This document shows, piece after piece, positions 951 to 61,478 of a DNA stretch of 64,000 bases. The position numbers were made by a program, and so were the translations under genes. How positions within the stretch are numbered: position 1 is the stretch's first letter; each line of letters opens with the position of its first letter. The stretch lies in sequence record OZ346205.1; one strand, given 5' to 3'. Under the pieces are notes generated by a model. It searched no databases. It saw only the letters and a list, made by a program, of their open reading frames with translations, and had not been told where the DNA came from. This DNA comes from a phage.

Positions 951-1433
951 ATGTCAGCTTTTATGTGGAAAGTAGGTTACGCAGCTCCTGAAATGTGTGA
1001 GGCTTGCTTTGTGAAAATAGGCCGCGAGGATATCGACAAAGTGATCCTTAAGTTTCGTGATGTGGCTGTGATCGGCAACCGAGTGCTTAAGCACTTAAAG
1101 AATTTGAAGCTCACCAAAAAGAAATTCTTCGGGCTTTTCGAAGAGAAAGTTGATGCTTGGACCCATTGCATTCAGGAAGCTAAATCTCACTACAGCGCTA
1201 TCGTTACCCCAGAACGGGTAGCCAAGATGGAAGGATTCATCAACAGCACAGAGTTTGAGTGCCTGAAAGCTGCACTTGATAGTTATCCGAAATGCCTCAA
1301 GCACTTGGACAAGTATGTAGAAAAGGATGGGGAAATGTACCTAACCCTGGACGCATATTATGAGATGCAAGAAATTTTAAATTTAGATTTGACATTGGTA
1401 TCCACCGAGTATACAATAGGTATCCGGGTTTAA
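951..1433 (+). CDS. hypothetical protein
   Basis: AAGGAGA RBS 7 nt before ATG; 160 aa ORF. Confidence 0.6.
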   Translation: MSAFMWKVGYAAPEMCEACFVKIGREDIDKVILKFRDVAVIGNRVLKHLKNLKLTKKKFFGLFEEKVDAWTHCIQEAKSHYSAIVTPERVAKMEGFINSTEFECLKAALDSYPKCLKHLDKYVEKDGEMYLTLDAYYEMQEILNLDLTLVSTEYTIGIRV

Positions 1434-1440
1434 CACTAGG

Positions 1441-1466
1441 CCCTGCCCGAAAGGGTGGGGCTTTTT
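1441..1466 (+). terminator. rho-independent terminator
   Basis: CCCTGCCC-GAAA-GGGTGGGG hairpin followed by CTTTTT; identical hairpin recurs at 11839. Confidence 0.6.
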
Positions 1467-1484: not shown

Positions 1485-2249
1485 TTGAAATTTATCTACA
1501 AAGAACACTACCACAAAGGTGTTGTGTGGAGCCTGTTTGACGGATCTGGTGGTGCAGTCATTGACTGGGCAAAAGCTGGGTATCTGTGCCTGTGCTTTAA
1601 TGCAGAAGGTGCTGATCACGGCAGTTATGCAGAGGTGATAACCGATCATCCCAACATTCACTATGTGGATTATTGGATTGACCCATGGTTCCCTCAGGAA
1701 ACTTTTTGCATGTACCCAGCTCCAGACTTTATTCTTGCATTTCCTCCGTGCACGCATTTAGCGGTATCAGGTGCTGCACATTTTAAGAAAAAGCTGGCTA
1801 AGGATCCTTTGATCCAAATTAATGCTGTAAAGGATGCTCGGGTTGCGGAAGAGTTGGGAGAGATTTACGATTGCCCGTGGCATGTAGAGAATCCTGTAGG
1901 GGTTATGTCCACACTGTGGCGAAAACCTGATTACCGTTTTCATCCTTCGGATTATGGTGGGTATTTACCGGAGGATGATGTAAACCCCTGGTTTCCTGAA
2001 TTTATAGCTCCACGTGATGCCTATCCAAAAATAACTTGCGGCTGGATAGGCAATGGATTTATAATCCCGGCCACAAAACCTGTCCCGCAAATAGTTGACG
2101 CGGTTAGCGGGTATTCCATGCAACACGCCAAGCTGGGTGGAAAGAGTGCAAGAACGAAGATGATCCGAAGCCTCACGCCACGTGGCTGGGCAAAAGCCGT
2201 ATTCTTAGCAAACGAGCCTGTAGTAAGGAGCAGAATTAATGGGAAGTAA
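1485..2249 (+). CDS. DNA (cytosine-5)-methyltransferase
   Basis: Motif I LFDGSGG, motif IV FPPC (catalytic Cys), motif VI HVENP; start placed at TTG 1485 after GGAGA because track start 1455 lies inside the terminator stem. Confidence 0.65.
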   Translation: MKFIYKEHYHKGVVWSLFDGSGGAVIDWAKAGYLCLCFNAEGADHGSYAEVITDHPNIHYVDYWIDPWFPQETFCMYPAPDFILAFPPCTHLAVSGAAHFKKKLAKDPLIQINAVKDARVAEELGEIYDCPWHVENPVGVMSTLWRKPDYRFHPSDYGGYLPEDDVNPWFPEFIAPRDAYPKITCGWIGNGFIIPATKPVPQIVDAVSGYSMQHAKLGGKSARTKMIRSLTPRGWAKAVFLANEPVVRSRINGK

Positions 2250-4317
2250 ATTTATGGCATCTGCATACAACCGTTTCGGTGAGCCAAACCCGAAAGCAAC
2301 TAAGTATAAAAGTGGGGGAAGTGTGAAACGAGACTATCGTGATGAAAAAGAGGTTGAAACTGTAGAGACTGTTTTAGAAAATACTAAAATCGTCCCTGTC
2401 CCACAACAAAATATCGGTCTGATGGCTGCACAATATTTTGGTGTGCGATCAGCATTATCCCAAGAAGATGGTGTGACAGTCACTGCAACATATTTCCCAT
2501 ATTACGACCGCTACGGAAATCTGTCCGGTTTCAAAAAGCGTGACTGGACGATTCCTAAAGAGCAAAGAGGCCATTTCTCCGTTGTTGGCATAGTAAAGGC
2601 TAACTCTCAGATGTTTGGTCAAAAGCTGTGTGCATCTTCCAACAACCGTAAGCAGATTAACGTTTGTGAGGGAGAAGGTGATGTTATTGCAGCATGGCAG
2701 GCTGCATATCAGATACAAGTAAAAGGGATTCTCACCAACGCTAAAGCCCCGGCAAAGGTGAAACAGTGGGCTAAAGAGGTCCAGGACGGGATCGATGCAG
2801 TTATCAACGGTGGCGATCTGGCAGGAAAACCATGCCTGCCTTTTGTTGGAATTAACTGTGGATGTGCAAACGCAGTAGATACTTTTGCAAACAATGAGAA
2901 GTTTATCCGTAGCTATGGAACAGTTGTGCTGGCAATGGATAACGATGCAGCTAACGAGGTAGAGAAGCAAAAACACGTCATTAAAGGTGTTGAGGCCACG
3001 CACAATATCGCAGCATTTTTGATGGCTGATAACGTTTACCACGTAGAATACCCTGGTGAAGTAAATGACCCTGACGGGGTAAAAGATATCCGTGACATGC
3101 TGAAGGCTAAAAAGCTGGAAGATATTGTCAACATGTTCCGGCACCCTGTTAAATATGTGCCTGATGCTGTGTCGGATTTAGAAGACTTCTCTATCGAGTC
3201 TTTGCGGAAAAAGACTTCCAACGGGGTAGATATCAGCGCAGAGTTCCCAAAACTGCAAAAAATGCTAAAAGGCTTGCACAAAGGGACACTCGTAATGCTT
3301 ACAGGGCCATCAGGGGGCGGTAAAACAACTGTAGCTAAAAAACTGGAACATTGTATTGCAAGATACCTAATGGACCCGACATGCCCGAAGGCTGATGACT
3401 ATGAAGAGGATGATCGTCTATGTATGATCCATCTTGAGGAGGACCCGGAGGAAGCAATTAACTCCTTGTATGCAAACCAGTTAGGGTTTGATGTTAAAGA
3501 GTTTGTTGAAGATCCTAGCCAGTTTTTAACTGATCAAGAACACGCAGAGATTCACCAATCATGGGCAAAAGCTGGAAAAATCAAAGTGTTCAAACATTTC
3601 GGATCTATTCCGGTGGACGAGTTGATTACCAAGCTTAAGCAAATGGTTTGCCTGTACCATTGCCGTTATATTGTGCTGGATCACCTGTCCATGGTAATTT
3701 CAGGGCTTAATGTTAAGGATGAGCGAAAAGAACTGGACATGGCTATGACTCAGCTGGCTGCGTTTTGTAAGCAGTTTAACGTGTTTATCTTAGTGATCGC
3801 TCACCTCAAACGTACAGAGATTGTGCCTCCTAAGGACAAGGATGGTAACCCGTTACCTTTCTGGTATCCTGTGCGAAAAGAGAATTTGCGAGGATCGGCG
3901 GGGCTTGAACAGTTGAGTTGGGTAGTCATAGGTGTCGAGGCCGAAGAAATGGTGGATCGTTCTCGTGGACGTGTCCGTCTGGTAGGTCTTAAAAACCGTC
4001 CAGCAAAAACTTTAGGTATTGCTGACACTTTGGTTATGGACCCGCACACAGGTAAGTTCCATGATGCCAGTAATTGGTACTGGGACAAAGAAATGCAAAT
4101 GTTTACAGACGGAGAAGGTGGGGAGGTTGTTTGGAGACCTCAGGCTATGTTTGAGGATCAGGAGCATGCAGTTGTAGAAACACCTATGGGCAAGGTTGTG
4201 GCTGATAAGGTTGTAACTCCTACTGTTAAGCCTGTTGACACGCAGGAAGACCTCCAGTACGATGATCCATCCTCTGACCCGGTCCCTGGTTTTGAGGATG
4301 ATGAAACGCCTTTTTAA
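2239..4317 (+). CDS. DNA primase-helicase (TOPRIM + DnaB/gp4-like helicase)
   Basis: TOPRIM-like CEGEGD and MDNDA; Walker A GPSGGGKTT; Walker B IVLDHLS; acidic tail ...EDDETPF. Confidence 0.75.
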   Translation: MGSKFMASAYNRFGEPNPKATKYKSGGSVKRDYRDEKEVETVETVLENTKIVPVPQQNIGLMAAQYFGVRSALSQEDGVTVTATYFPYYDRYGNLSGFKKRDWTIPKEQRGHFSVVGIVKANSQMFGQKLCASSNNRKQINVCEGEGDVIAAWQAAYQIQVKGILTNAKAPAKVKQWAKEVQDGIDAVINGGDLAGKPCLPFVGINCGCANAVDTFANNEKFIRSYGTVVLAMDNDAANEVEKQKHVIKGVEATHNIAAFLMADNVYHVEYPGEVNDPDGVKDIRDMLKAKKLEDIVNMFRHPVKYVPDAVSDLEDFSIESLRKKTSNGVDISAEFPKLQKMLKGLHKGTLVMLTGPSGGGKTTVAKKLEHCIARYLMDPTCPKADDYEEDDRLCMIHLEEDPEEAINSLYANQLGFDVKEFVEDPSQFLTDQEHAEIHQSWAKAGKIKVFKHFGSIPVDELITKLKQMVCLYHCRYIVLDHLSMVISGLNVKDERKELDMAMTQLAAFCKQFNVFILVIAHLKRTEIVPPKDKDGNPLPFWYPVRKENLRGSAGLEQLSWVVIGVEAEEMVDRSRGRVRLVGLKNRPAKTLGIADTLVMDPHTGKFHDASNWYWDKEMQMFTDGEGGEVVWRPQAMFEDQEHAVVETPMGKVVADKVVTPTVKPVDTQEDLQYDDPSSDPVPGFEDDETPF

Positions 4318-4375
4318 TGTTTAACAAAGAGTGGGAGGGGTAGTACAACCGCCTCCCCTTTAAGGAGAACTGTAT

Positions 4376-6799
4376 ATGAGTATGTGGTCTTTCGATTTTG
4401 AGTCATCCGGTTTGCTGGAAGACCCAGATCTTTATTATCACTGCGGTCTGTTTAAAGAGCTGAATAAGAACCGTTTTATGCTGTTCCTTCCTCTAAATGA
4501 CCGCACACACTACTCCGAGGAGGATATAGAAAAGGCTAAGAACTTCATTCTGTCAAAGAAAACTCTTTATAAAGATTTTGAAGTTCGCATAGCAGATTTT
4601 TCGGAGTTGGAAGGTTGGCTTACAGGCAATTCTGACTGGTCACCAACAGCTTTGAACTGCCATAACTGCTACAGTTATGACTTTATGCTAATGGAAAGAT
4701 TATCCGGTATTCATTTTGATATGTTCCGTGATCCTAAATGCATGGGGACTATCAACGACCACCAGGTTAACCTGTTTGATACGTTGGCTATGAGCCGAAT
4801 CTTGTGGCCTGATCGCCCTTTACCAAAAGGTTGTCCGGACGCTGTATTCAACCCGGTTACTAAGAAAATGCAACCTGTTGGTCCTCACGGCCTTATGGCA
4901 TGGGGCTACGCCCTTGGTAACCAGAAAGTTCAAATTGATGACTGGCGCGATCTTCCGTTGTGGAAGTATGTGGATCGTGTATTCGAGGACGTTATCATCC
5001 AGGAGCTGCTCTGGAAAGAGCTGGTAGCGGAATCAAAAGGTGTATTCTACGGCAAATCTGACATGCAGAACTTTATGTACGATCCAGCCAAAGAGAAGCC
5101 GAAAGGGTTCAAGAAGATCACCTGGAAGAACGCATTACGTCGAGGCATGCTGCAGCACTTCCTGATGGAGCTGCAGGCCCGTCAGGGTGTATACTTCGAC
5201 ATAGATGGAGCTATTGCTTTACGTGACCGTTGCGATGCGTGGATGAAAGAAATCGCTGATCGTGTTGAACCACAACTACCTTTAAAAGAGCTGTCAATGT
5301 CTCAGCGGCCCAAGTTCCCTGAAAAGCCGTTTAACCAAGACGGGACAATCTCTAATAATGGTTGGAAATGGTTAAAAGATAAGCTTGGCTATCCTGTAGA
5401 CATGAGTGCTTTAGAGTTCAAAGCCCCGCCTAAGCGAGCATTTACCTCTACAGGAGATGTCAGCAAGATGGGGATAAAATGGTGTGAAGAGATGGGCTGC
5501 AAAGACCCCGATAAGATGGCTGATTTCTTGAGAGGCTATATTAAGGGCACCTCCACACCACAACCCTTACCTAAAGAGCTGATGGATCAGGCAATAAGTG
5601 ATCTGCAGCAGAAGCGAATGCCTGACTGCAAGATACCTATGAAAATCAGCAATCAGGACGACATCAAGCGATACCTAATCAGTGCTGGTTGGCTCCCAAC
5701 AATGTGGAGAACTAAAGATGTAACTAAAGACAGCAAGAAGAAAGCTTTACCTGATGCAGATGTTGATGCACGAGTATATGCATATATGGACGAGCTTTTG
5801 GAGTCAGAGTATTGTGACCTAATTATCAACTTCTGGAACAAAACTGATGCTAAGTTCCAGACAACCGTGCACAAGTTCCGAAGCTTTCCTAACTCCGAAA
5901 GGATTAAAAAGGAAGTATTCGGGAAAATACGTAGAAAAGCCAGGGCACTTATTACTTCTCCGCAACTGAAAGATACGTTTGGACACCTATGCCCAAATCT
6001 TGAAAAATTGAACGGAGAGATGGCTAAAGATATCGTCTTGTGGTTATCATTGCGAAACCGCAGATCGGTCCTTGATCCAATCAAGGAGGATAAGGTTGAT
6101 ACTGGTCTTCTTAATCACCCACGTTTGAAGATTGACCATAAGCTTCCTGCTAAAAGCTCTGGATTAACAAACACTTCCAGACAGAAACACAGTATTTGTG
6201 CAAACATGCCTAAACCATCTCCTAAAGTGGTTATGGGTAAAGAGATGCGTAGTCTGTGGGGTGTTCCTCCGGGATACTTTGAGATCGGTATTGACGGGTC
6301 CAACTTAGAGCAGCTTATCGGGGCTTGGGGTGCCTTTGAGTTCGACAACGGCCTGTATTATGATGTTGTAAGTAACGGAGACGCACACCAAAACAATGCT
6401 GAGGCATATACAAAAGTGGCAGGCAGAGAGGTGTCCCGTAACGACGGTAAACCTATCACGTATGGGGTTATGTACGGGGCACAAAAAGATAAAGTTGCAG
6501 ATATGTTGGACATCTCCCCAGAGTTGGGACAAAGGGTAATCGATGCACTCTGGGATGCCAACCCAGGTCTTAAGGGGCGCAAAGAGGATCTGGAGAAATT
6601 CTGGGAAGCAACAGGTAAGAAGTTTATCTACTCTTTTGATGGTCATGCTATCTGGACCCGATCTAAACACTCTTTACTTAATGCATACCAACAAAATGGC
6701 GGTGCATCGTTGTGTGACTTAGTTGGAATACTCATGCACCACCAGATGGTGAAGCGTGGGTGGTACGATGAAGGTGTTCGTCGTATTATTTATTACCAT
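4376..6799 (+). CDS. DNA polymerase, family A (Pol I-like), exon 1
   Basis: 3'-5' exo motif FDFESSG; motif A IDGSNLEQ; motif B R..GKPITYGVMYG; frame ends ...RRIIYYH just before motif C. Confidence 0.8.
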
Positions 6800-7075
6800 A
6801 AATAACATTGTGGCTTCATAGAGTAATCTATGTCGAATAACCTCTTTAACTGCGGGAAGCCTAAACCTTATGGCAAGGTAATCCGCAACGAAGCGCTCAA
6901 AAGAGCGAACGCTCAGAGGCCATTCCGAAAGGAAGTAGACCAGCAAGTGCGGTCGAAATGGGAGGATTCCTGTGGTTGCTTATCATAGGAATATGAGATG
7001 GTCCGATCCTACGTGAAAACGTATGGCTATGCACGTAATGGTGCGGGGTAGCTTAACGACCTACCTGAACTATTG
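6800..7075 (+). mobile_element. group I intron (no ORF) splitting DNA polymerase motif C
   Basis: P-like ACTGCGGGAAGCC (6848), Q-like AATCCGCAACG (6880), S-like GAGATGGTCCG (6995); follows exonic U, ends in G; exon junction YYH|DE restores motif C. Confidence 0.65.
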
Positions 7076-7429
7076 GATGAGTACCAACTTCAAGTGCCTG
7101 ACACACCGAAGTATAAGACTGTGTACACCTTCGACACAATTGAAGAACTGGAAGCATTTAAGGCAGAGCAGGAAGCCAAACTTCATGTGTTCGACGGTCA
7201 TAAGTACAAAAAGGCACGCAAGGATGAGGACGGAAACGAAGTGGTTGACAGAGACGGAAACACGGTGTACGATCCTATCCTGAACGATGACGGAAAGCTT
7301 GAACTTATCTGGAGCCCTGTGGGTGAAATGGTGGTACATTGCTTCTGGCAAGCTTCTAAAATGATGGGAGTCCCGTTCCAGATCACAGGTGAATACTTGT
7401 GTGGTCGTAATTGGGGTGATTGTCACTAA
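7076..7429 (+). CDS. DNA polymerase, family A, exon 2 (C-terminus)
   Basis: Begins DEYQ (motif C completion); ends ...GRNWGDCH like Pol I ...GENWDQAH. Confidence 0.7.
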   Translation, partial: DEYQLQVPDTPKYKTVYTFDTIEELEAFKAEQEAKLHVFDGHKYKKARKDEDGNEVVDRDGNTVYDPILNDDGKLELIWSPVGEMVVHCFWQASKMMGVPFQITGEYLCGRNWGDCH

Positions 7430-7478
7430 TGTAAACTATCAACACATGGAAGTGTTGTTGAGCAAAGAGGAGACTTTT

Positions 7479-7763
7479 ATGGTAGTAGAACCAACAAAAA
7501 CATTTACATCCATGACTATCCCTGTTATTATGCAGGTGGAGTGTGTTCAGGTATCTCAAGTGTGGCCTGGCACCAAAATCCCAACAGGGCCTGATTTCTT
7601 TCAGGTTGGGAAAGTGTACAATGTCTGGAAGGCACCAGATTGTTACCCTTTCATTAAAGATGACCGTGGGATGCTGTGGTATCTTGGAAATGACTTGACA
7701 CTGCACCTTGGGAATGCTATTATTGCAGTATTCAGACTTAACAAGAAGGAGACCGATCAATGA
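7479..7763 (+). CDS. hypothetical protein
   Basis: ORF 7389..7763; start moved to ATG 7479 with AAAGAGGAGA RBS, clear of polymerase end. Confidence 0.5.
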   Translation: MVVEPTKTFTSMTIPVIMQVECVQVSQVWPGTKIPTGPDFFQVGKVYNVWKAPDCYPFIKDDRGMLWYLGNDLTLHLGNAIIAVFRLNKKETDQ

Positions 7764-7987
7764 CGACTTTGGTTAAAGCCACCTTTGTAGAAGAAAAGAT
7801 GACAGACATGTCATTCTTTAAAGAAGGAAAGACCTACGAGGTTTATTACGATAAAGCTCGTGCAAACAAAATGATTAAAGACGAGGAAGGGGTTGACTGG
7901 TATATCTCTCACCTGGCAAACGGTGAGTATCATATCTACGGAACCACTTTGCTTGCCAAGTTTGTAGTTGTTGAAGAGGACCTATGA
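7760..7987 (+). CDS. hypothetical protein
   Basis: ATG overlaps upstream stop; AAGAAGGAGA RBS. Confidence 0.55.
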   Translation: MTTLVKATFVEEKMTDMSFFKEGKTYEVYYDKARANKMIKDEEGVDWYISHLANGEYHIYGTTLLAKFVVVEEDL

Positions 7988-8178
7988 AAGTAAAGTATCT
8001 TGCTGAAGGTATGAATAGGTATTTTACCCTTGGTGAAGAATATTGGCCCTTTACAAACAACGGCGATGTCTACGTGAAAGATAATTTCGGCACGCCGTGG
8101 TTTCTGCACTCTAATGGGCTGGGATACTCCATTTACTGCGGTGCAGTGAACAACACAACTCTTGCAGAGTTCGTTTAG
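7984..8178 (+). CDS. hypothetical protein
   Basis: Coupled start; GAAGAGGA RBS. Confidence 0.5.
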   Translation: MKVKYLAEGMNRYFTLGEEYWPFTNNGDVYVKDNFGTPWFLHSNGLGYSIYCGAVNNTTLAEFV

Positions 8179-8188
8179 AGGAGGTAGG

Positions 8189-8560
8189 ATGTTAGTAAAA
8201 GGTACCCACACAGTCAAACAACGTATTGAAGTTGAGATTGATGATTGTGAGCTGAAGCATATTTTACGGTCATGCTCCAACGTTTTGCTCCTTAGTATTC
8301 TTCAGGAGCGAGCGGAGAACGAGTTCTTAAATGCATTGGCAGGCCGTCCCGGTGACTTCTGTGTGCGTAAGCGTGGTGACAACAAGTCGTGGTTGTGGGA
8401 GATCGATGCCGACTGGGATTACCACAAAAATGAGGGTATAGATGAGCCTATTCGTGAACTGACGGACAAAGAGATTCAGATGTACAATGAAGTTTGTCAT
8501 TGGGCAACACGCCAACAAATTTACCTAGACCCTGTGTGGCTGATTGAAAATAGTCGTTGA
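8189..8560 (+). CDS. hypothetical protein
   Basis: ATG 8189 preceded by AGAGGAGG; track start 8162 is TTG. Confidence 0.55.
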   Translation: MLVKGTHTVKQRIEVEIDDCELKHILRSCSNVLLLSILQERAENEFLNALAGRPGDFCVRKRGDNKSWLWEIDADWDYHKNEGIDEPIRELTDKEIQMYNEVCHWATRQQIYLDPVWLIENSR

Positions 8561-8585
8561 CAAGAAGTAAGGTTAGATGTAAGAT
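8557..8585 (+). promoter_or_regulatory. sigma70-like promoter
   Basis: TTGACA - 17 nt - TAAGAT. Confidence 0.45.
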
Positions 8586-8636
8586 ACTCCTCACAAACAG
8601 AGTATTGATTGTTAAATAATTAAGGAGACCTCTAAG

Positions 8637-8891
8637 ATGAAAATCATGTTGAAACCAGAATGCGTTGCAAACGACCGAGCTTTTAAAGATTGCACACTTG
8701 GCGCTACTTATGAAGCAGAGTTTTGTGAGAACCCTTTGGTAAAAGCCCTTTTGGAAGAAGGGGCCCCTCTATCACAAGAAGAGCTTGATGAGCTGGAAAA
8801 CTCAGCACAGTGCCTTACCTTTAAAGATGATGAAGGAGACTCTGTCTGGTGCACTGTTAACGAAGTAGTTTTTGTAAAAACTGAACATTAA
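8637..8891 (+). CDS. hypothetical protein (paralogue of 8955..9215)
   Basis: AAGGAGA RBS; shares AF(K/R)DCT ... GD.V.CT pattern with next gene. Confidence 0.55.
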   Translation: MKIMLKPECVANDRAFKDCTLGATYEAEFCENPLVKALLEEGAPLSQEELDELENSAQCLTFKDDEGDSVWCTVNEVVFVKTEH

Positions 8892-8894
8892 TAC

Positions 8895-8923
8895 TTGACA
8901 ACAGCGATAGGACCTAATACAAT
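8895..8923 (+). promoter_or_regulatory. sigma70-like promoter
   Basis: TTGACA - 17 nt - TACAAT. Confidence 0.5.
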
Positions 8924-8954
8924 GGTCCTATCAAAACGAAAGGGGACCACAGCA

Positions 8955-9215
8955 ATGACCAAACAATATCAACGAATTAAAGCCAAGGTTAAGCCAGACT
9001 ATCTAGAGAAGGACTCTGCTTTTCGGGACTGCACAGCTGACAAAGTTTACACAGGGGCCGTCCTGTTGAACGATAAACTTGAAGTAGATGTGCTGGGTAA
9101 AGAGGCCGTTATCGAGGATGACAACGGTGACTGTGTTTTCTGCACCACACGAGAGCTAGAAGTCTTAGAATATTTCGGTGAAATCTTCAACTCCTTAGAC
9201 GACGAGGAAGCGTGA
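8955..9215 (+). CDS. hypothetical protein (paralogue of 8637..8891)
   Basis: ORF 8895..9215; start moved to ATG 8955 downstream of the promoter -10, AAAGGGGA RBS. Confidence 0.5.
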   Translation: MTKQYQRIKAKVKPDYLEKDSAFRDCTADKVYTGAVLLNDKLEVDVLGKEAVIEDDNGDCVFCTTRELEVLEYFGEIFNSLDDEEA

Positions 9216-9604
9216 TGAAAAATATTTGGGATATCGATATCTTTGAAGCCTCTAAGCTTGACGGTGCTGATGGAGTGATTATGGTGTCTGATGGCAAGGC
9301 AACACTAACTTCCGGAGATATCATCTATGCCTTGGACGAGCTGGCGCTTCTGAAATCTACCGGTAACACTTTGGAGGAGCGTCTTCAAGGATTCGCTTTC
9401 AAAGAAGGTACAAATACAGCCATGATGTGCACCACACGGACAGTCCAGGTTGGTAACGGTGTCTATATGATTATTGCTGTGTGTCCTAAATTCAGCAACG
9501 TCAACAAAGATGATGCTGACGCGGTCAACGATGTGGTTGTTCTCTTCGTGGGTGACGCTATGGCAGATCTGATGAATGCAGGAGAAGCAGCAAATGAAGA
9601 CTGA
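9215..9604 (+). CDS. hypothetical protein
   Basis: GAGGAAG RBS; ATG 9215. Confidence 0.5.
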   Translation: MKNIWDIDIFEASKLDGADGVIMVSDGKATLTSGDIIYALDELALLKSTGNTLEERLQGFAFKEGTNTAMMCTTRTVQVGNGVYMIIAVCPKFSNVNKDDADAVNDVVVLFVGDAMADLMNAGEAANED

Positions 9605-9896
9605 AAACATCACCCCAGCAGGGTTCTTAAAAGTATACCGTGAACTGCTATATACTACAGAGGACAGTGTTCTAGAGTATCCAGAATATCTTTTGCTGTA
9701 TAAGTATCTGCAGGAGGCTGGTGAAAATCTGCCAGTTAGTGCAGAAGGTGGTCCAAACTGGATATACAGCGCATGGAGAAAGGTTGACATTCTCCCAAAC
9801 CCAGGTAAAGATATGGTAGTTTGGCAGCTTATCAACAACATCGGGATTCCAATCTTTGATGAAGCTGTTAAAATCTATTTTGAACTTGACGATTAA
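9594..9896 (+). CDS. hypothetical protein
   Basis: ORF 9576..9896; ATG 9594 with GGAGAAG RBS. Confidence 0.5.
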   Translation: MKTENITPAGFLKVYRELLYTTEDSVLEYPEYLLLYKYLQEAGENLPVSAEGGPNWIYSAWRKVDILPNPGKDMVVWQLINNIGIPIFDEAVKIYFELDD

Positions 9897-9913
9897 TATC
9901 AGGAGACCTTAAG

Positions 9914-10159
9914 ATGACTGAAGCAGTTGCTCGCGCAGGACAGAAAGTACGTTGTGTTGAAGTAGGTTTTGGTGGCAAAGGGTGTCAAAACTTGACTCAA
10001 GGCAAGGAATATGCTGTTATCTCTGGTGGTGGCGACGAAAGTATTGTGTTCGAGGGTCACATCCTGGATGCTGAAAACTTTGAAATCTTTGACGACGATG
10101 GGGATCCGATCACCTGCCTGCTGGACGGGAATTGGGGAACTTTCGAAGTGATTGGCTAA
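9914..10159 (+). CDS. hypothetical protein
   Basis: AGGAGA RBS. Confidence 0.55.
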   Translation: MTEAVARAGQKVRCVEVGFGGKGCQNLTQGKEYAVISGGGDESIVFEGHILDAENFEIFDDDGDPITCLLDGNWGTFEVIG

Positions 10160-10242
10160 CAAATACCTATTGTAATTTACAGAAGGGGATGCTAAAATAG
10201 TGTCTCCTTCTATGTTGTTCAAATAAAATCGGAGATTCCATA

Positions 10243-10611
10243 ATGGAACAAATGAACGATCAAGAGTCGGTTGCGATGAACGAGCAAGAACAACCTCAAG
10301 AATTTTTCTTAGGGTTAAGTAAAGATCAAGTGTCTCTTTTGCTAGTGCTTTCTTCTTTCATGGGAAGACTTCAGGAGCTCACACAACAACCGGAGGCTGA
10401 ACAATTATTTCAGGCTCTGCGTGAAGAAGAAAAATATCGTCGTTTGGACTATGCCTTAGGTTGGGTAGCTCAACAACGAGATATGCTGATGGCCCTCTCT
10501 GGGACCACAAGTTTTGCAATGGGCCTGTTGGCTCAAGTTCAGGACAAATTAATTCAAGCAGGGTTTGCACACACGGCAAACACTAACGAAGAACAAGGAG
10601 ACAAAGAATGA
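10243..10611 (+). CDS. hypothetical protein
   Basis: GGAGAT RBS; preceded by terminator-like hairpin at 10168-10215. Confidence 0.5.
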   Translation: MEQMNDQESVAMNEQEQPQEFFLGLSKDQVSLLLVLSSFMGRLQELTQQPEAEQLFQALREEEKYRRLDYALGWVAQQRDMLMALSGTTSFAMGLLAQVQDKLIQAGFAHTANTNEEQGDKE

Positions 10612-11822
10612 GCGTTATTCAACAATTCGCTAACCCGATGAATCCGCGTGAAACTGTTTTACTGGCTCACGGCATGATTAAACGCGTCAGCATCAAGCCT
10701 ATCAAAGGTGCTGATCCTACAACAGGTATTAAAACCACTGTGTGGCAAGGTAAGAAAATTGAATCCAGCCACACCATCTCTTTACTGATTTCTGAACTGG
10801 ATTCCTCTGATAACCTACTTCAAGGTGGTGAAGAAGTTTGGATCAGTATGGGCGATAAGCTGCTTAAACCGGGTCATCAAGACTCTGTCTCTGTTAAAAT
10901 TGATGACAAGTGGGAAACCGTAACGCCAGGATGGATCGTAAATATTCCTTTGAAGGCAAACGAGCATAACGGTAAGACCTATTACAAAGGCTCACTGGCT
11001 AAGATGGTTAAGCTGGGTGTAGGAGAGGCTCCAGCAGCGACTCAGCAGCAAAAACAGCAACAAGGTGTACAATCACAAGGCCAGAAGCAGAATGCCAATC
11101 AGGACGTTTTACGCATCTATGGCGATGTGACTCAGATTGTTGGCAACGTGGTTACTGTCAATGACCACAAGATTGGCGAAGGTGCTATGGTTGTCACCGA
11201 TGAGCAGCTTAAAGATCTGGTGGTAGGTGGTCGTGTTGCAGCCATTGTTGACAAAGACACCGGAAACATTATCAGTGGTTTCAAAGCCTACCCCCCTAAG
11301 GCAGAGAACGGCACTCAAGGCTCCGGTGGCAAGCGTAAATCCTCTTACGACCCTATCGGTGTGGAAACGGGGCATAGCATCAATGCGTTGCAGATCATCC
11401 TGGATCGCGGGTTTAAGGTAGACGACCCACTGGGCGTGGCTAAAACACTGCACGTAGTCACCATTGAGCTTAAGAAAGAGTATGCTCAGGCCACCAACCG
11501 AACTGAAGATGAAGTAGGTGCCAGTGTCGGTAATGCGGTGTTGAACGCTTGTCGCCGTATTGACAAGAAAACGAAAGTTGATGATTTTGCAGCGGCAATT
11601 ACTGCAGAAGCAAAAGATGTCTTGACTAATCTGGCTGAGCCGTTGTACGATTGGATCAAGAACGGTGCTGGGTCAACTGACCATCAAGAACCTCAGGCTA
11701 CCAAACAGGAAGCAGCTCCACAGCAAAACACTGTAGACGCTCCTCCTGTAAATGATGAGGAAGATGACCCAATGGATCAGAATCCAGCACAGTACTCCTT
11801 TGATGATGACATCCCTTTTTAA
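10608..11822 (+). CDS. SSB-like protein with canonical SSB C-terminal tail
   Basis: C-terminus ...FDDDIPF matches the E. coli SSB tail; Q-rich linker; AAGGAGA RBS; OB-fold not verifiable by eye. Confidence 0.5.
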   Translation: MSVIQQFANPMNPRETVLLAHGMIKRVSIKPIKGADPTTGIKTTVWQGKKIESSHTISLLISELDSSDNLLQGGEEVWISMGDKLLKPGHQDSVSVKIDDKWETVTPGWIVNIPLKANEHNGKTYYKGSLAKMVKLGVGEAPAATQQQKQQQGVQSQGQKQNANQDVLRIYGDVTQIVGNVVTVNDHKIGEGAMVVTDEQLKDLVVGGRVAAIVDKDTGNIISGFKAYPPKAENGTQGSGGKRKSSYDPIGVETGHSINALQIILDRGFKVDDPLGVAKTLHVVTIELKKEYAQATNRTEDEVGASVGNAVLNACRRIDKKTKVDDFAAAITAEAKDVLTNLAEPLYDWIKNGAGSTDHQEPQATKQEAAPQQNTVDAPPVNDEEDDPMDQNPAQYSFDDDIPF

Positions 11823-11838
11823 CAATTAGTTAACATAG

Positions 11839-11866
11839 CCCTGCCCGAAAGGGTGGGGCATTTTTA
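11839..11866 (+). terminator. rho-independent terminator
   Basis: CCCTGCCC-GAAA-GGGTGGGG then CATTTTT; same hairpin as at 1441. Confidence 0.6.
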
Positions 11867-11884
11867 TATAAGGAGATCTGAAAA

Positions 11885-38119: not shown

Positions 38120-39208
38120 TTAAAACTCCCAAATTTCTTCTTCAGCGTCGTTAACAGTTGTGTTGACGCGGTAGTCAGTGTTCGACATTTCTTGGTTCGC
38201 CGTCTGTTGTAATGAAGGTTTCATCCACACCTGCATAAACGGTAGCGGGTCCTTTGTTGGCGGCACAAAGTCTTTGTCGATGTCGTAGTAATCATAAATC
38301 GGTGAGCAGTTATAGTCAACCCACTCTTTAAGCAACGGTGAGTTAAGACCTATAATCGCTCTTCCTTCGCTGAAAATATAGTCACTCCAACCGTACTCTT
38401 TGGTTCGTACTTCATCAAGAATCTCTTTTAACTCCCCCTTTATCTCAAGGAAGCTTTTCTCCCATGCGGGATCATTAAGCAAGATATCAATGATGGCAAA
38501 ATCACCTTTCGAATGTAGCATTTCGTCAAGCATGATTTTTTGAACAAGCTGCGCCACCTGAACAAAGATACCCTGTTCAGCTACTGCGAAAGTGCATGCA
38601 AAACTTGCAATAAACTCAATACTTTCCAGAGCTAAAAGCGCAAAAAGCGCTCTAAGAATGCATTTCCGCACAATATCTTCTTCAACACTAGAAGGATCCA
38701 GGCGGTATTTTGCACCAATAACCTCAAGCTCTTGCATGTATTTGACAATAACGCCGGATCTGCTCAGAACGTTTTGGTTTTCCTGAATCTCTTCTATAAT
38801 CTCACGGGCATTGGGGAGGCATTGTCTAACAATCTCTGAGTAAGTTAGTGCGTGAAGAACTTCAATCTCTGACTGTTTCATCAATAGAGTGAAAAGCTCA
38901 CTATTAGTGATGAATGGTGAAAAGAGGCAGATGATCGATCTTGCCGCAACGCTATCAGCCTCCCATTGCCACATCAAGGTCTGCACCATCACGTCATAAG
39001 TTGACTTTGAGCATGTTACAAAATCTGAAATAGATTGCGACAAATCCACTTCATCCTCTGCCCAATCTTGCTCTTTTTGTTTTTTGTATAGTTCAAACAG
39101 TTGTGGATATTTTTTGTTGATAGAGTCGTACATACCCATTTGCTGTCCCAGAAACAGCGGATAGTCACCAGTTTTATGAGCGGTGTTCTCAGCATTAAAT
39201 ACAGCCAT
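38120..39208 (-). CDS. nrdB: ribonucleotide reductase class Ia small subunit
   Basis: Di-iron/tyrosyl radical protein length and C-terminal ...EEEIWEF tail; start moved to ATG 39208 after AGAGGTAG. Confidence 0.85.
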   Translation of the reverse strand: MAVFNAENTAHKTGDYPLFLGQQMGMYDSINKKYPQLFELYKKQKEQDWAEDEVDLSQSISDFVTCSKSTYDVMVQTLMWQWEADSVAARSIICLFSPFITNSELFTLLMKQSEIEVLHALTYSEIVRQCLPNAREIIEEIQENQNVLSRSGVIVKYMQELEVIGAKYRLDPSSVEEDIVRKCILRALFALLALESIEFIASFACTFAVAEQGIFVQVAQLVQKIMLDEMLHSKGDFAIIDILLNDPAWEKSFLEIKGELKEILDEVRTKEYGWSDYIFSEGRAIIGLNSPLLKEWVDYNCSPIYDYYDIDKDFVPPTKDPLPFMQVWMKPSLQQTANQEMSNTDYRVNTTVNDAEEEIWEF

Positions 39209-39246
39209 TATTCTACCTCTAAAATGGGGCCGAAGCCCCTTTAAAA

Positions 39247-41562
39247 TTATAGTGCACAGCTTTCGCAATACGGATCTTCAACTGAACTATCTGCAATCAA
39301 AGGATAGTTCTTTCTGGTTTCATCTTCAGCCTGTTTCTTGGCATGAAGTTCCTCTGCCAAGGAGTCACCAGCACCAACCCTAGAGTTTAAATAATACCAT
39401 GTCTTCATCCCGAATTTAGTGGCACGGATAAGGTACCCTAACTGCTCCTTCATTGAAATTTTACCATCTTTCAACTTGGTGTAGTCTATGTATAAATCCG
39501 CGCTGATTGCCTGACCTGTGAATTTTTGAATCACGGCATACATATCGATCATGTCGTTAGTATCAACGTCCCAAGCCGAGGTGTAATACTCTTTCAACTC
39601 ATCATAGTCAGGAACGATAAACAGCACCTGCCCTTGTGGCGACTTTTTAAAGATAATGTGCTCACGGACAGGATAAACCCCGTTAGTGGTGTTTGTTGCC
39701 AGCGAAGAGCTTTCATTAGGCATATATGCTTCAAGAACGCTATTACGTAGCCCACCATTCTCAATGATTTCTTTACGTAACCCTTCCCAATCCTGTTTAA
39801 GAGAAGGATCTTTCACCACGCTATCGACCTCTTTGTTATAGGTGTCGATTGGTAACCAACCTTCTGGATATTTTGTTTTATGCATCCACTCGCAGACACC
39901 ACGCTCTTTTGCCAACCGTAAACTTGCCTTATGCAAGCTGTAGCTGTGAAGTTCTGCAAGATCGTGAACGAGCTGTTTACTTTCAGGAGACCCGTAAGTA
40001 ACCTTGTGGCTGGCAATAAAATGTGCAACATTGGTAAGGCCAACCCCGATGGATCTGCGTTTTTTAACTGTGCTTTCCATATTTTCATACGGATATGTCA
40101 TGATTTCCATAACATTGTCAATCATAAGCACCGTATAGTATGCAACATCCTCATACTCCTCTGGAGTAACCCTCCCAGCTACAAGAGATGACAGGAAGCA
40201 CAATGCAACCTCTCCATCATCAGCATCGTACTTGAAGATATTACGCATATCTGAATAGCCTTTTGTCGGGAGGGCTATTTCTGCACACAGGTTGCTTGAA
40301 TAGATCACATCTTTAAAAGGTGTATGTCTATTCATCTCATCTGTCCAGTATACGTACAGCCTTCCCACCTCAGTGCGCTGCGTGATCAGTTCAACAGCAA
40401 GATCTCTAGCTCGGATCCATGTTTTAGGAATACTGTCATCTTTAGCAATACGATCAACCTCTGCATCAAACTCCTCCATAGACATGGTGAAGATACCCTC
40501 ATGCAGTTGAGGCGCGTGCTTATAAGAAACAAGCATCCAATCTAAATTCTTAGCCACACGGTTGATAAACGACCTATTAATACCGATGGAGTAGTCCATG
40601 GTGTTGATTCTTTTTGAAGCAACAGTCATAGGGTTTCTCAAACGGATTAGCTCATCAATCTGCGGGTCCAGTGCAAGGAATGATACTGTTGCAGAACCAC
40701 CACGTGATTGTTGTCTGTTCTCCTTAACCCCAGCATCAATACCTCGATAATATGGAATCTTACCCATATGTTTAATAGTGTTACCACGAACACCATCGCC
40801 TGCAGATCTTGAGGATAAGTAGTAGCCGATACCTGCTTGGTTAACCGTCATTGTGTACGCAACTTCACGTGCCACACCAATAGATTTTGCTGTATCGTCA
40901 GCTTTTATTACACAACAAGATGCATACCCTGTCTTACCTGTGCGCAGCCCGTTTAAGTACGGTGTTGGGGCATTGATCTTTAAGTCGGACAGATAAGTGT
41001 ATAATTTTACAACATCGTTGATACGACGTTCTTTCGGCATATTCTTCATGACAGCCATTGCTATCCCCATAAACATCATCTGGGGAGATTCAAACAAGGT
41101 GTCTTTAAGAGTATCCTTGATCCCGTATTTGTCGCGAAACTGTTTAAGGACTGCATAGCCATAACCGAGATCTTTACTGTGGTCAATAACAGCGTCTAAA
41201 GTGTTTAGCTCGGTAAAGCTATAACCCATATCCTCCCAATAACCTTTCTCAACCATGTCATTGTAAAATGATGGTAAGGAAGGGATCTTTGTAAACCCTC
41301 CAAAAGCCTCTTTATAGATCTGACCAATAAGAACACGACCAGCCATACGGGAATGTGCTTCGTCTTTACGGCTAACACAAGAGTCTATAATAGCTTGGTT
41401 AACTTCTTTGGTTGTACATCCATCATACAACCGCTTGTAGGCATCCAGTGCAATATGTGACCAATTGCCGTTACCATCGTCACCGAAAATAGCTGCCTTA
41501 TTTAAACGTTCTGGATCGAATGCCACTTCACATCCGTTGCTTTTAATTACCTTGGTGATCAA
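39247..41562 (-). CDS. nrdA: ribonucleotide reductase class Ia large subunit
   Basis: N-terminal ATP-cone (VIKSNGCEVAFDPERL); 771 aa. Confidence 0.9.
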   Translation of the reverse strand: MITKVIKSNGCEVAFDPERLNKAAIFGDDGNGNWSHIALDAYKRLYDGCTTKEVNQAIIDSCVSRKDEAHSRMAGRVLIGQIYKEAFGGFTKIPSLPSFYNDMVEKGYWEDMGYSFTELNTLDAVIDHSKDLGYGYAVLKQFRDKYGIKDTLKDTLFESPQMMFMGIAMAVMKNMPKERRINDVVKLYTYLSDLKINAPTPYLNGLRTGKTGYASCCVIKADDTAKSIGVAREVAYTMTVNQAGIGYYLSSRSAGDGVRGNTIKHMGKIPYYRGIDAGVKENRQQSRGGSATVSFLALDPQIDELIRLRNPMTVASKRINTMDYSIGINRSFINRVAKNLDWMLVSYKHAPQLHEGIFTMSMEEFDAEVDRIAKDDSIPKTWIRARDLAVELITQRTEVGRLYVYWTDEMNRHTPFKDVIYSSNLCAEIALPTKGYSDMRNIFKYDADDGEVALCFLSSLVAGRVTPEEYEDVAYYTVLMIDNVMEIMTYPYENMESTVKKRRSIGVGLTNVAHFIASHKVTYGSPESKQLVHDLAELHSYSLHKASLRLAKERGVCEWMHKTKYPEGWLPIDTYNKEVDSVVKDPSLKQDWEGLRKEIIENGGLRNSVLEAYMPNESSSLATNTTNGVYPVREHIIFKKSPQGQVLFIVPDYDELKEYYTSAWDVDTNDMIDMYAVIQKFTGQAISADLYIDYTKLKDGKISMKEQLGYLIRATKFGMKTWYYLNSRVGAGDSLAEELHAKKQAEDETRKNYPLIADSSVEDPYCESCAL

Positions 41563-46249: not shown

Positions 46250-47233
46250 TTAGATTATCTGAATCAGGGTATTTTTCATTTCTTCTCTGGTGCGGATGTT
46301 GTTACGGTCACGAACAACAGATCCACAACCTTCGCAGCGGTATGTTTTAAATGCACTCAGTTGAGTATACGCCAAAGCTTCTTCCTCGTGAAGGTGTTCT
46401 CCACCACAGCGTGGGCAACGAACTTTTGGCTCCTCATCCTGGTAGTACAATGACATGTTGGGGTGCTGCTTAGCAAACGGGCGAGCCAGCAAATACAGGC
46501 CTTCCAGAGATAGGATATCGCCAACATTGTACTCCCGCATCTGTTTAAACGCCTCAAGATCACCGTGAACACACTTGATCCACATTTCAAATGTGTGGTC
46601 AATCAGTTTCTGTCGGGCAAGTTGGAAGTATTTGCATGCATACTCCAAAGTGTTTGCATTCAAACGGAATGCCTTCTTGATCATTTTAAGGGTGTCAACC
46701 TCTTTGTAGGGGCTTGTTGGAGGCAATCCGTGAAATGCAAATCGTTGGTTGGCCCACCCACAGTCAAAACCTGAATTGTGGGCTACTGCGACATCACATT
46801 TATCCAGATAATACCACAAATCCTGAATCAATTCGAGATCATTGTGAATATCCTCATCCCACATTTTGTAATCAGGAAGAGCGCAGTCAACCACACTAGG
46901 ACTGTCTAACCACTTACCTGCGAAAGTTAGCATGTAGGGCATAATTTCAATACCGCAGGTTTGAATGTTGGTCTTATAGTGCCCAAAGAACCAGCCGTTT
47001 GTTGGAGATGTCTCTGTATCATACACCCAAACTTTAGCACCTTTGTGCTCTTCAAGGAAGCGCTCCGTTGCTTCTCCTACAATCTCTGACATATTCTCTT
47101 GTGCACGTTTAAGCTGTAGTCGGATCCAGCTCTCACGTGACTCACGGCCTAAAAATTCACGAGCAATTTGTCTATTAGTGTATCCCTGTTGCTTTAGTGT
47201 TAAAATTTGCTCAAGAGTTAACTTTGTCATCAT
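46250..47233 (-). CDS. DEDD-family 3'-5' exonuclease with N-terminal HTH and C-terminal Zn ribbon
   Basis: Exo I VYDTETSP, Exo II AHNSGFD, Exo III H....D; CPRCGG...CEGCG. Confidence 0.6.
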   Translation of the reverse strand: MMTKLTLEQILTLKQQGYTNRQIAREFLGRESRESWIRLQLKRAQENMSEIVGEATERFLEEHKGAKVWVYDTETSPTNGWFFGHYKTNIQTCGIEIMPYMLTFAGKWLDSPSVVDCALPDYKMWDEDIHNDLELIQDLWYYLDKCDVAVAHNSGFDCGWANQRFAFHGLPPTSPYKEVDTLKMIKKAFRLNANTLEYACKYFQLARQKLIDHTFEMWIKCVHGDLEAFKQMREYNVGDILSLEGLYLLARPFAKQHPNMSLYYQDEEPKVRCPRCGGEHLHEEEALAYTQLSAFKTYRCEGCGSVVRDRNNIRTREEMKNTLIQII

Positions 47234-47245
47234 CGTTAAGATTCC

Positions 47246-47467
47246 TTAGTAAAACTGAAGAATGTCTTTTAAAGCGAAGTCACGATATTCGCCCTTGTCT
47301 ACATCGAAGGCACGCATCAACCACTGCTCTTCTTTATGATACTCTGTAGAGCCAAACCATAAATTAGGCTCAGTAACGCAGCGATCTGCAACAACACCTT
47401 TCCAGTTACGGTATTTCATCCTGATCAGAACTGAATCGCAAGGATTGAATACCTTTTTCATCCCCAT
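47246..47467 (-). CDS. hypothetical protein
   Basis: ORF track. Confidence 0.45.
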   Translation of the reverse strand: MGMKKVFNPCDSVLIRMKYRNWKGVVADRCVTEPNLWFGSTEYHKEEQWLMRAFDVDKGEYRDFALKDILQFY

Positions 47468-48011
47468 AGAAATCTCTCTCCTCAGTTTTCTTTATAAACT
47501 CCTGCATGTAGAACTCAATAGCCTCATGCTTGGTGCACTCCGGATTAATGACAAGATTGAGATCTGATTCTGCTCGTGCAATGATCGTAGCTTTAGAGCA
47601 TCTCCTCAAGAACTTTGTCATATCATCTCTGTAGTTTTTGTGGAGCGGGAAGTCGCTGTAGTCTTTCTCCAAATAGTCAGCCATCCGGCGCAACGCCTCT
47701 GATAAACTGCAATCTGTATACTCGTTACAGTATTTCATCCAGTATTTAAGCACATACCCCTCAAAGGTATTAGTGCATTGGGACAAAACACCCCTGCAAC
47801 GACCAGTCAGATGGTCATGATCCAAACAAGGCTTACGAAGTGGCTCGCACAAGATAGGATCAAGACCATCCTGCTCCTCTGACAATTCTTTTCGAAAGTT
47901 GGCTATGTCCTTAGAATCTTTTAACCACCCGTTATGAACGGGGGCTTTGACAGCTTTCTTTCTTATTTTACGCTTTGCGATAATCCCTCCAGATGCGCCC
48001 TGCCTATCCAA
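47406..48011 (-). CDS. endonuclease VII-family (HNH-like) nuclease
   Basis: C..C...DHDHLTGRCRGVL..C motif as in T4 endo VII; true start may lie downstream of 48011. Confidence 0.55.
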   Translation of the reverse strand: MDRQGASGGIIAKRKIRKKAVKAPVHNGWLKDSKDIANFRKELSEEQDGLDPILCEPLRKPCLDHDHLTGRCRGVLSQCTNTFEGYVLKYWMKYCNEYTDCSLSEALRRMADYLEKDYSDFPLHKNYRDDMTKFLRRCSKATIIARAESDLNLVINPECTKHEAIEFYMQEFIKKTEERDFYGDEKGIQSLRFSSDQDEIP

Positions 48012-60742: not shown

Positions 60743-60817
60743 GCCCTGTTAGCTTAGTGGATAAAGCAGCGGCCTTCTAAGCCGTTGACACTGGTTCGAG
60801 TCCAGTACGGGGTGCCA
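60743..60817 (+). tRNA. tRNA-Arg (anticodon UCU)
   Basis: Cloverleaf by eye: acceptor GCCCTGT/ACGGGGT, anticodon loop CTTCTAA, T-loop TTCGAGT, encoded CCA. Confidence 0.8.
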
Positions 60818-60821
60818 AATT

Positions 60822-60908
60822 GGGGAGTTATCCCGTAGAGGTAGCGGTGTAGACTGTAAATCTATTGTCATTGCGACTCGGGTGGTTCGACTCCACCACT
60901 CCCCACCA
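60822..60908 (+). tRNA. tRNA-Tyr (anticodon GUA)
   Basis: Acceptor GGGGAGT/ACTCCCC, anticodon loop CTGTAAA, long variable arm, T-loop TTCGACT, CCA. Confidence 0.75.
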
Positions 60909-61022
60909 AATTTATATTTTTAGATGCATAAATAATACAGATAATGGCATTGATATTTATCGTCGTTTATACTAGTCACTAACTGCTCGAAAATCAGTGT
61001 CATTATCAGTATAATTTATAAA

Positions 61023-61113
61023 GGAGGGTAGGGAGCAATGGTGCTCAAGCGGTATTGAAAACCGTCCCGTTGAGGATGACTCGATGATGGTTCGATTCCA
61101 TTACTCTCCGCCA
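61023..61113 (+). tRNA. tRNA-Ser (anticodon UGA)
   Basis: Acceptor GGAGGGT/ACTCTCC, anticodon loop ATTGAAA, long variable arm, T-loop TTCGATT, CCA. Confidence 0.65.
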
Positions 61114-61211
61114 CATTGTTGACCTTGTAATTAAGCGAAAGCCGGAAGCAGAACCGGATTATCAAATGTTACAGTCGTCATCGCCGACTAGCAACATGGT
61201 CAACATACTGA

Positions 61212-61310: not shown

Positions 61311-61315
61311 TTTTT

Positions 61316-61391: not shown

Positions 61392-61392
61392 A

Positions 61393-61467: not shown

Positions 61468-61478
61468 AATAGTAAATA

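Follow-up and report, generated by a model that had tools for sequence, protein, structure and literature searches.

The 64,000-nucleotide stretch of phage DNA analysed here (sequence record OZ346205.1; hereafter the window, to which all coordinates refer as a whole) encodes two proteins that end in matched acidic tips closed by Pro-Phe: a 692-residue primase-helicase of the T7 gp4 family (2239..4317, + strand) and a 404-residue protein (10608..11822, +) that resembles single-stranded DNA (ssDNA)-binding proteins (SSBs). The last seven residues of the 404-residue protein are those of Escherichia coli SSB, and both tips are kept in homologues in which the preceding linkers have drifted. We think it rather probable that the 404-residue protein is the replicative SSB of the phage and that both tips are docking peptides, for the phage family-A DNA polymerase (PolA) as in T7 and for host SSB partners.

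The SSB-like identity and the C-terminal tip of an orthologue, Bas52_0087, were already known (bioRxiv 10.64898/2026.04.29.721553). What is new here is the matched and equally conserved tip on a gp4-type helicase, the definition of an OB / (OB) / four-helix-bundle / tip protein family, and the portability of the tip together with its candidate cap. The tail pair varies two established themes, tail docking in T7 and the bacterial SSB-tip hub, and because such tails are textbook knowledge for both T7 and E. coli, the advance is an incremental one. Many Vequintavirus (rV5-like) coliphages have proteins with 97-98% identity to the 404-residue protein, and the primase-helicase is 100% identical to its counterpart in phage slur16; we therefore assign the window to the genome of an rV5-like E. 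coli myovirus (Vequintavirus).

Two proteins with matched acidic tips

The primase-helicase open reading frame (ORF) ends in ...DPVPGFEDDETPF (GFEDDETPF) and that of the 404-residue protein in ...NPAQYSFDDDIPF (AQYSFDDDIPF), which bears out the first-pass annotation in seeing acidic, Phe-ended tails on both. Its further statement, that FDDDIPF is identical to the E. coli SSB tail, holds for the last seven residues: by alignment to PDB entry 1eqq_A, the E. coli protein ends in ...EPPMDFDDDIPF (PPMDFDDDIPF). The T7 tails used for comparison end in ...SNDTDF (gp4) and ...DEDGDF (gp2.5).

In the primase-helicase, the tip EDDETPF (4294..4314, +) closes a flexible acidic linker of 75 residues (618-692; 4090..4314, +) that lies beyond the DnaB_C domain match and has an isoelectric point (pI) of 4.05, with 19 Asp and Glu against 4 Lys and Arg. 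In the 404-residue protein, the tip FDDDIPF (11799..11819, +) closes an acidic tail (residues 352-404; 11661..11819, +) of pI 4.05, with 13 acidic residues against one basic, which is predicted to be disordered (predicted local distance difference test score, pLDDT, below 50 for residues 355-400).

Only these two of the 120 non-overlapping ORFs of the window combine an acidic stretch with a PF end, and an additional 76 kb of the related phage slur16 holds no further tail of this kind. By a rough composition estimate over 120 ORFs, an exact FDDDIPF end would be expected by chance with a probability of about 1e-7, and an end with at least three acidic residues in five, then any residue, then PF, with one of about 3e-3.

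Conservation is a stronger argument against chance than composition. Of 120 primase-helicase homologues, which reach down to 42% identity and include those of Vibrio phages, 112 retain the PF end, while the linker sequence is unconserved; the tip consensus is D-[DN]-[DE]-[TSE]-P-F, as in DFDNDTPF, DLDSDSPF and DGDEPF. In the same way, no homologue down to 30% identity departs from P403 and F404 of the SSB-like protein, while the roughly 50 residues before them cannot be aligned. Judged from these alignments, both tails are under strong purifying selection and a chance origin is excluded.

The two kinds of tip differ in one respect, as the residue that is Ile, Leu or Val in the SSB-like tips is consistently polar in the helicase tips. 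A third acidic-aromatic tail in the window belongs to an NrdB-like small subunit of class Ia ribonucleotide reductase (PHROG 86; 38120..39268, - strand), which ends in NDAEEEIWEF. An acidic, Phe-ended tail on this subunit is the usual R1-binding tail, and it is unrelated to the replisome pair.

A non-canonical family of SSB-like proteins

AlphaFold2, run on the 404-residue protein with a 24-sequence alignment, predicts an all-beta domain and, after a Gln-rich linker, a small barrel; a second linker then leads to a four-helix bundle, and the tail closes the chain. All of these are encoded on the + strand. By the model and fold searches, the N-terminal domain (residues 1-138; 10608..11021) is an OB fold. 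It is followed by a disordered linker (residues 139-166; 11022..11105), with pLDDT below 50 for residues 141-165 and 75% Q/P/G/A/S/T, whose length varies among strains, with a four-residue indel relative to both Bas52 and slur16. The compact five-stranded barrel (residues 167-228; 11106..11291) comes next, and then the four-helix bundle (residues 249-351; 11352..11660), modelled with pLDDT above 90 and with helices at 249-266, 274-295, 300-317 and 324-351.

The first-pass annotation had called this protein SSB-like and unusually long for an SSB. The predicted structure contains SSB-type OB folds, so that the lack of an OB fold cannot be held against the first of these points, and the extra length (404 residues against 178 in E. 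coli SSB) comes from two additional domains and two long linkers. The N-terminal domain is basic (pI 9.1), with conserved Lys and aromatic (K/W/Y) positions, and in structure searches with this domain in isolation SSBs and PriB rank above RecO. We conclude that the middle barrel of the model is a second, minimal OB fold, because OB domains found with the full model (RPA 3e0e, AspRS 5gro, OBody and SSBb 5gqo, aligned over 63-64 residues at 1.8-2.0 Å) align differently to the N-terminal domain alone, and because Foldseek returns IF1-type matches over 65-68 columns with probabilities of up to 0.99.

Like E. coli SSB, the 404-residue protein would combine an OB-fold DNA-binding module with a long disordered linker and an acidic tip; it differs in lacking sequence homology in the body and in adding a second OB barrel and the four-helix bundle. 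Set against the canonical SSBs of PF00436, it has their SSB-like OB fold in its predicted structure and their disordered linker and D-D-D-I-P-F tip, but it does not match their sequence profile. The protein matches no Pfam family at E ≤ 0.01, and its relatives in phi92, CR3 and metagenomes match none even at E ≤ 1. In the PDB, sequence searches with the protein and with a 101-sequence family profile matched the E. coli SSB tip alone. E. coli SSB tetramerises through its OB domain; in the phage protein the four-helix bundle probably mediates self-association.

A search with a family hidden Markov model over 1.8 billion representatives gave 228 clusters at 50% identity in metagenomes, of which we examined the best 150. 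The end xPF is found in 113 of these, of which 106 have [ILV]PF, with an average of 4.3 acidic and 0.03 basic residues among the last ten; the remainder are for the most part fragments or extended. The consensus of the tip is D-F-D-D-D-[ILV]-P-F, and up to 13 residues of the E. coli SSB end recur in family members, with NEPPMDFDDDIPF in one (P0121) and PPMDFDDDIPF in several others. More than half of the same best 150 (86) are 250-300 residues long and lack the middle barrel, which leaves an OB fold, the four-helix bundle and the acidic tail as the core of the family.

The bundle is the best-conserved part. G251, G255, H256, N259, G304 and G308 are invariant or nearly so, and its motifs read D-x-x-G-x-E-x-G-H-x-x-N and G-A-S-V-G-x-A-V-L-N-A. 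With tblastn, the bundle alone is found in phi92 and in phAPEC8-type phages, and structure and sequence searches for relatives of the bundle gave no convincing match. Among isolated phages, the family is confined to the Vequintavirinae and their relatives (rV5, phi92, phAPEC8, Mydo-, Seuna- and Certreviruses).

Homology to T7 gp2.5 (DUF2815) was considered and rejected: hhalign of the family alignment gave a probability of 0.3% and an E value of 0.21 in a region outside the OB fold, and the Foldseek match to the DUF2815 structure 4klk is weak (E 0.056). We also gave no weight, in judging the body of the protein, to the 'SSB' labels that a few GenBank records carry, as they are probably based on the tail; the match of PHROG 18154 (SSB) to the phi92 and CR3 proteins is confined to roughly their last 50 residues.

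The Vequintavirinae and their relatives are common therapeutic and model coliphages whose SSB has never been annotated, as there is no Pfam family and the 404-residue protein falls into PHROG 4477 of 'unknown function'; recognition of the family fills this gap. The rV5 genome paper names no SSB (PMC3606486). Neither the window nor 76 kb of slur16 holds another ORF that resembles E. coli SSB, gp2.5 or ORF68 of Vibrio phage ICP1.

A gp4-type primase-helicase in a terminator-bracketed module

The first-pass identification of the ORF at 2239..4317 as a primase-helicase is confirmed by its match to PHROG 239 ('DNA primase/helicase') over residues 18-678 (E 6.4e-160) and by Pfam matches to DnaB_C (E 1.9e-13, residues 332-589) and AAA_25 (E 2.1e-15). 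Profile matches, rather than a motif-by-motif comparison, place both a DnaB/gp4d-type hexameric helicase domain and an N-terminal primase region in it. In tblastn searches the protein is 100% identical to its slur16 counterpart, 54% to that of Salmonella phage SPLA5a, 48% to that of Vibrio phage ICP1 and about 27% to T7-group gp4 (27.4% over residues 306-605 for T7 itself). Helicase tips such as DNDTPF resemble the gp4 end SNDTDF, with NDT-PF in place of NDT-DF.

Both genes belong to a replication block that holds, in this order, a promoter-like site, a methyltransferase-like gene, the primase-helicase gene, the family-A polymerase gene, small ORFs and, last, the SSB-like gene. Directly 3' of the SSB-like gene, a terminator scan found an intrinsic terminator (11838..11866, +), with a 9-bp stem of which 7 pairs are GC, followed by ATTTTTAT. 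Its 22-nucleotide hairpin, GCCCTGCCCGAAAGGGTGGGGC, occurs exactly twice in the window, at 11838..11859 and at 1440..1461 (+), and in none of 100 shuffles. The block that runs from the methyltransferase-like gene to the SSB-like gene, with the primase-helicase and polymerase genes between them, is thereby flanked by identical hairpins. The upstream copy, a putative terminator by its match to the consensus, marks the upstream edge of the module, and just before it lies a strong, sigma-70-like candidate promoter, TTGACA-17-TACAAT (1389..1417, +; 11 of 12 consensus positions). The order primase-helicase, polymerase, small genes, SSB-like gene and converging tail genes is common to slur16, CR3, SPLA5a and VLCpiM5b.

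Escape from DRT10 maps to the helical bundle

Bas52_0087 of Escherichia phage RudolfGeigy (BASEL Bas52) is identical to the window protein at 402 of 404 positions apart from the four-residue linker indel and has the same FDDDIPF end, and we take it on this basis to be the orthologue. A preprint of 30 April 2026 describes it as a predicted SSB-like protein with two OB folds, a disordered C-terminus and the E. coli SSB-like tip FDDDIPF, and as required to trigger DRT10, a reverse-transcriptase defence; both Bas52 mutants that escape DRT10 carry substitutions in it, D252V and Y351C (bioRxiv 10.64898/2026.04.29.721553). The preprint also connects the FDDDIPF motif to exonuclease I (ExoI, SbcB), overexpression of which weakens the restriction of Bas52 by DRT10, and proposes competition with ExoI (bioRxiv 10.64898/2026.04.29.721553).

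The two substitutions correspond to D248 of the window protein, which lies just before helix 1 and is nearly invariant in the family, and to Y347 in helix 4. The preprint places them at a 'putative oligomerisation interface', whereas we map them to a four-helix bundle that forms a domain of its own, is highly conserved and is the hallmark of the family. The preprint contains no ssDNA-binding assay, tail mutant or family survey and does not mention the tail of the primase-helicase. This provides a structural frame for the triggering of DRT10, in which the escape substitutions fall in the bundle and not in the OB folds or the tip. ExoI is a known SSB-tip partner, and the ExoI-DRT10 genetics are consistent with an SSB-like tip that engages host SSB-partner pockets.

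A portable tip and a conserved appendix

In Vibrio phage ICP1, the position of the 404-residue protein at the end of a replication module with a homologous primase-helicase (48% identity) and PolA is taken by ORF68 (L005:17882..19048), a 388-residue protein of PHROG 2544 ('unknown function') that ends in DLDDSIPF; the ICP1 primase-helicase ends in DGDEPF. We rejected ORF68 as a distant homologue of the 404-residue protein, because no homology can be detected outside the last 15 residues. It apparently represents a non-orthologous replacement of the SSB body with the tip retained. Because a non-homologous protein in the same genomic position ends in such a sequence, we regard the acidic Pro-Phe tip as portable, as far as sequence comparison can tell.

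In some homologues of both proteins, the ...DDD[IT]PF tip is followed by an appendix of about 15 residues, A-P-[IVM]-G-L-[QP]-[YF]-x-x-x-x-[IL]-[YH]-x-[LI]; tblastn detects it in 213 or more phage records, on proteins of three unrelated types: gp4-type primase-helicases, the rV5/phi92 SSB-like family and canonical PF00436 SSBs, the last in Vibrio phage V039C, coliphage mEp013 and Cronobacter phage JK004 (examples of the appendix: phi92 L002:12433..12468; P0215, P0224, P0044 and P0019; L008:538..2601; L012:577..1125; L013:1117..1581; L014:1042..1581). Both window proteins lack it, and in VLCpiM5b it is present on the helicase and not on the SSB. A literature search for the motif and a database search with a 47-residue peptide returned no candidates. 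Read-through into a downstream homing-endonuclease gene was rejected as an origin, as the phi92 copy continues the reading frame, is conserved as protein sequence and has a terminator after it.

The distribution of the appendix shows that helicase tips and SSB tips are treated as equivalent modules. More speculatively, and with low odds in our view, the acidic D-D-x-x-P-F tip might be a portable docking module grafted onto unrelated replisome proteins that compete for one set of receptors, with the appendix as a regulatory cap or a second docking motif. Its bearers may include canonical SSBs, the OB-OB-helical SSB family, the ICP1-type protein and gp4-type primase-helicases. If so, the appendix could, for example, keep the Phe carboxylate hidden from partner proteins of the host or from sensors by which defence systems detect phage SSB tips.

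Docking model and alternatives

The candidate receptor of the tails is the family-A, T7-like DNA polymerase, the first exon of which (4376..6799, +; PHROG 17, E 1e-90) follows the primase-helicase gene. We propose that the 404-residue protein acts as the phage's own ssDNA-binding protein, of a non-canonical family. The acidic residues of each tip would steer it to a basic surface, and the terminal Pro-Phe would plug a hydrophobic pocket. In this way the helicase tip would tether the polymerase, as the gp4 tail does in T7, and the SSB tip would pass ssDNA-bound SSB to the same polymerase. As a copy of the host tip, the SSB tip would also engage host SSB-interacting proteins such as ExoI on phage ssDNA.

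In T7, the tails of gp4 and gp2.5 bind the front basic patch of the polymerase (K587/K589/R590/R591) and its thioredoxin-binding domain (PMC12339929). The window phage is like T7 in its homologous primase-helicase and family-A polymerase, and in flexible, acidic, Phe-ended tails on both helicase and SSB; it differs in that its tips end in Pro-Phe rather than Asp-Phe and in that its SSB-like protein is not a gp2.5 homologue. A phage SSB tail that ends in Pro-Phe is also known from HK620, where the last six residues, NDYPPF, are needed to recruit a phage-encoded partner, the Sak4 annealase, to SSB-coated ssDNA (PMC5928155), although the HK620 protein is a distant homologue of canonical SSBs.

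The C-terminal tip of E. coli SSB is a hub for ExoI, chi, PriA, RecQ, RecO, DnaG and others. The tip of the 404-residue protein has what the host pockets require, a free C-terminal Phe, Pro at -2 and an acidic run, and as a host-tip copy it should therefore fit the pockets of host SSB partners. For the helicase tip, with Thr in place of Ile at -3, such a fit is uncertain.

The first-pass annotation had offered T7-like coupling and mimicry of the host tip as alternatives. Both are alive, they are compatible, and they would leave the same trace in the sequence. The T7-type reading is supported by the homology of helicase and polymerase and by the likeness of NDT-PF to NDT-DF, although the T7 basic patch is conserved only in part; the host-partner reading gains indirect outside support from the DRT10 and ExoI genetics. 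The paired tips would provide a simple handle on T7-like replisome wiring in large myoviruses and on whether phage SSBs enter the host SSB interactome.

Several observations weigh against the combined docking model. In phi92, the SSB-like protein has a tip and yet the primase-helicase ends in ...NISAGSY, so that the two tails are not obligatorily paired. In many phages the PF is followed by the 15-residue extension, and a free Phe carboxylate is not always present. The front basic patch of T7 polymerase is only partly kept: in a MAFFT alignment with T7 gp5, only KK aligns, opposite R590/R591, and the K587/K589 loop is missing; R599/K600, basic in SPLA5a, ICP1 and phi92, are lost in the polymerase of the window phage. 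Bas52_0087 expressed alone is harmless to E. coli (bioRxiv 10.64898/2026.04.29.721553), which argues against massive titration of host SSB partners.

If the coupling were purely internal and T7-style, the phage polymerase, or the protein that bears the other tail, would be the sole docking site of each tail, and the identity with the host tip would be convergence on a generally good acidic-aromatic plug that gives host partners no part. T7 uses exactly the same logic (PMC12339929), helicase and polymerase are homologues of those of T7, the helicase tips resemble the NDTDF of gp4, and the orthologue expressed alone does no harm to the host. Convergence would nevertheless have to account for up to 13 host-end residues reproduced in family members, far beyond what a generic acidic-Phe plug needs and absent from T7 itself, which has DGDF and DTDF without IPF, and the link of DRT10 to ExoI dosage points to host ssDNA-processing proteins. 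We consider this explanation unlikely.

A decoy or hijacker, in turn, would sequester or redirect host SSB-interacting proteins, for instance by blocking ExoI or RecQ at phage DNA ends, while host SSB serves replication. Such a role would suit a tip that is an exact host copy, a protein much larger than SSB with an extra conserved helical domain, and the competition with SbcB/ExoI proposed in the preprint. Against it, the two predicted OB folds and the basic N-terminal domain fit an SSB, as does the location of the gene as the last of the replication operon; the window and the 76 kb of slur16 offer no other phage SSB candidate, overexpression alone is not toxic, and the substitutions that allow escape from DRT10 fall in the helical bundle and not in the tip. 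This makes a decoy quite improbable in our assessment.

We give still less credit to a recombination mediator or annealing protein of the RecO type, an OB fold plus a helical bundle, recruited to other factors by its tail. The RecO matches come from the OB domain alone, with aligned lengths of 82 residues for the full model against 68-71, and SSBs and PriB score higher for the isolated domain. RecO is, moreover, a reader and not a bearer of SSB tips, and neither a zinc motif nor a RecO sequence signal was found in the 404-residue protein.

That the tails are functionless compositional accidents of acidic low-complexity C-termini, of the kind that might be read into the EEEIWEF end of the NrdB-like protein, is refuted by the invariance of PF in hundreds of divergent homologues of two proteins that are unrelated to each other, next to linkers that drift, and by the same tip on the non-homologous, syntenic ICP1 protein.

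An intron in the polymerase gene

Comparison with the uninterrupted polymerase gene of slur16, which set the exon and intron borders, shows that the polymerase gene of the window is split by a 276-nucleotide group I intron without an ORF (6800..7075, +; Rfam RF00028, 64.7 bits, E 4e-14, match 6790..7025). The second exon (7076..7429, +) is collinear with the C-terminus of the slur16 polymerase and matches PHROG 8888 at positions 185-295 (E 1.3e-58). The intron lies exactly between the His and the Asp of the catalytic YHDE motif C of the polymerase, the last base of the 5' exon is T and the last base of the intron is G. In the alignment with T7 gp5, the polymerase shares the C-terminal ...CH end and has a Lys-rich thumb insertion at the site of the T7 thioredoxin-binding domain that is not homologous to that domain.

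The intron may be unannotated in relatives, because the rV5 paper gives a polymerase of 775 residues and introns only in the terminase gene (PMC3606486). In VLCpiM5b, the polymerase (L008:2958..5715) is annotated as two coding sequences 287 nucleotides apart, which suggests an intron like that of the window. The phi92 polymerase gp159 (L002:7017..10331) carries an insertion of about 250 residues in the palm/fingers region, absent from all others compared, which is possibly an intein. In the window itself, a homologue of a 'DNA polymerase exonuclease subunit' (PHROG 403) is encoded apart from the polymerase and on the opposite strand (46250..47233, -).

Neighbouring genes and related records

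Directly downstream of its SSB-like gene, slur16 carries an endonuclease VII/HNH-like gene (L001:21374..21952) that is absent from the window, where only a 62-nucleotide spacer with the terminator (11823..11884) is found. Other endonuclease VII-like ORFs lie at 47406..48011 (-) and 63303..63893 (+), a distribution consistent with free-standing homing endonucleases that move around rV5-type genomes. Three genes downstream of the SSB-like gene, the window encodes a Macro-domain protein (PF01661; 12980..13537, +), and six tRNA genes are clustered at 60743..61552 (+). Proteins about 97% identical to the 404-residue protein also occur in 21 INPHARED records labelled 'Campylobacter phage' (for example MG065635, MG065659 and MG065644), which probably represent Vequintavirus genomes whose host was wrongly assigned or whose source preparation was mixed.

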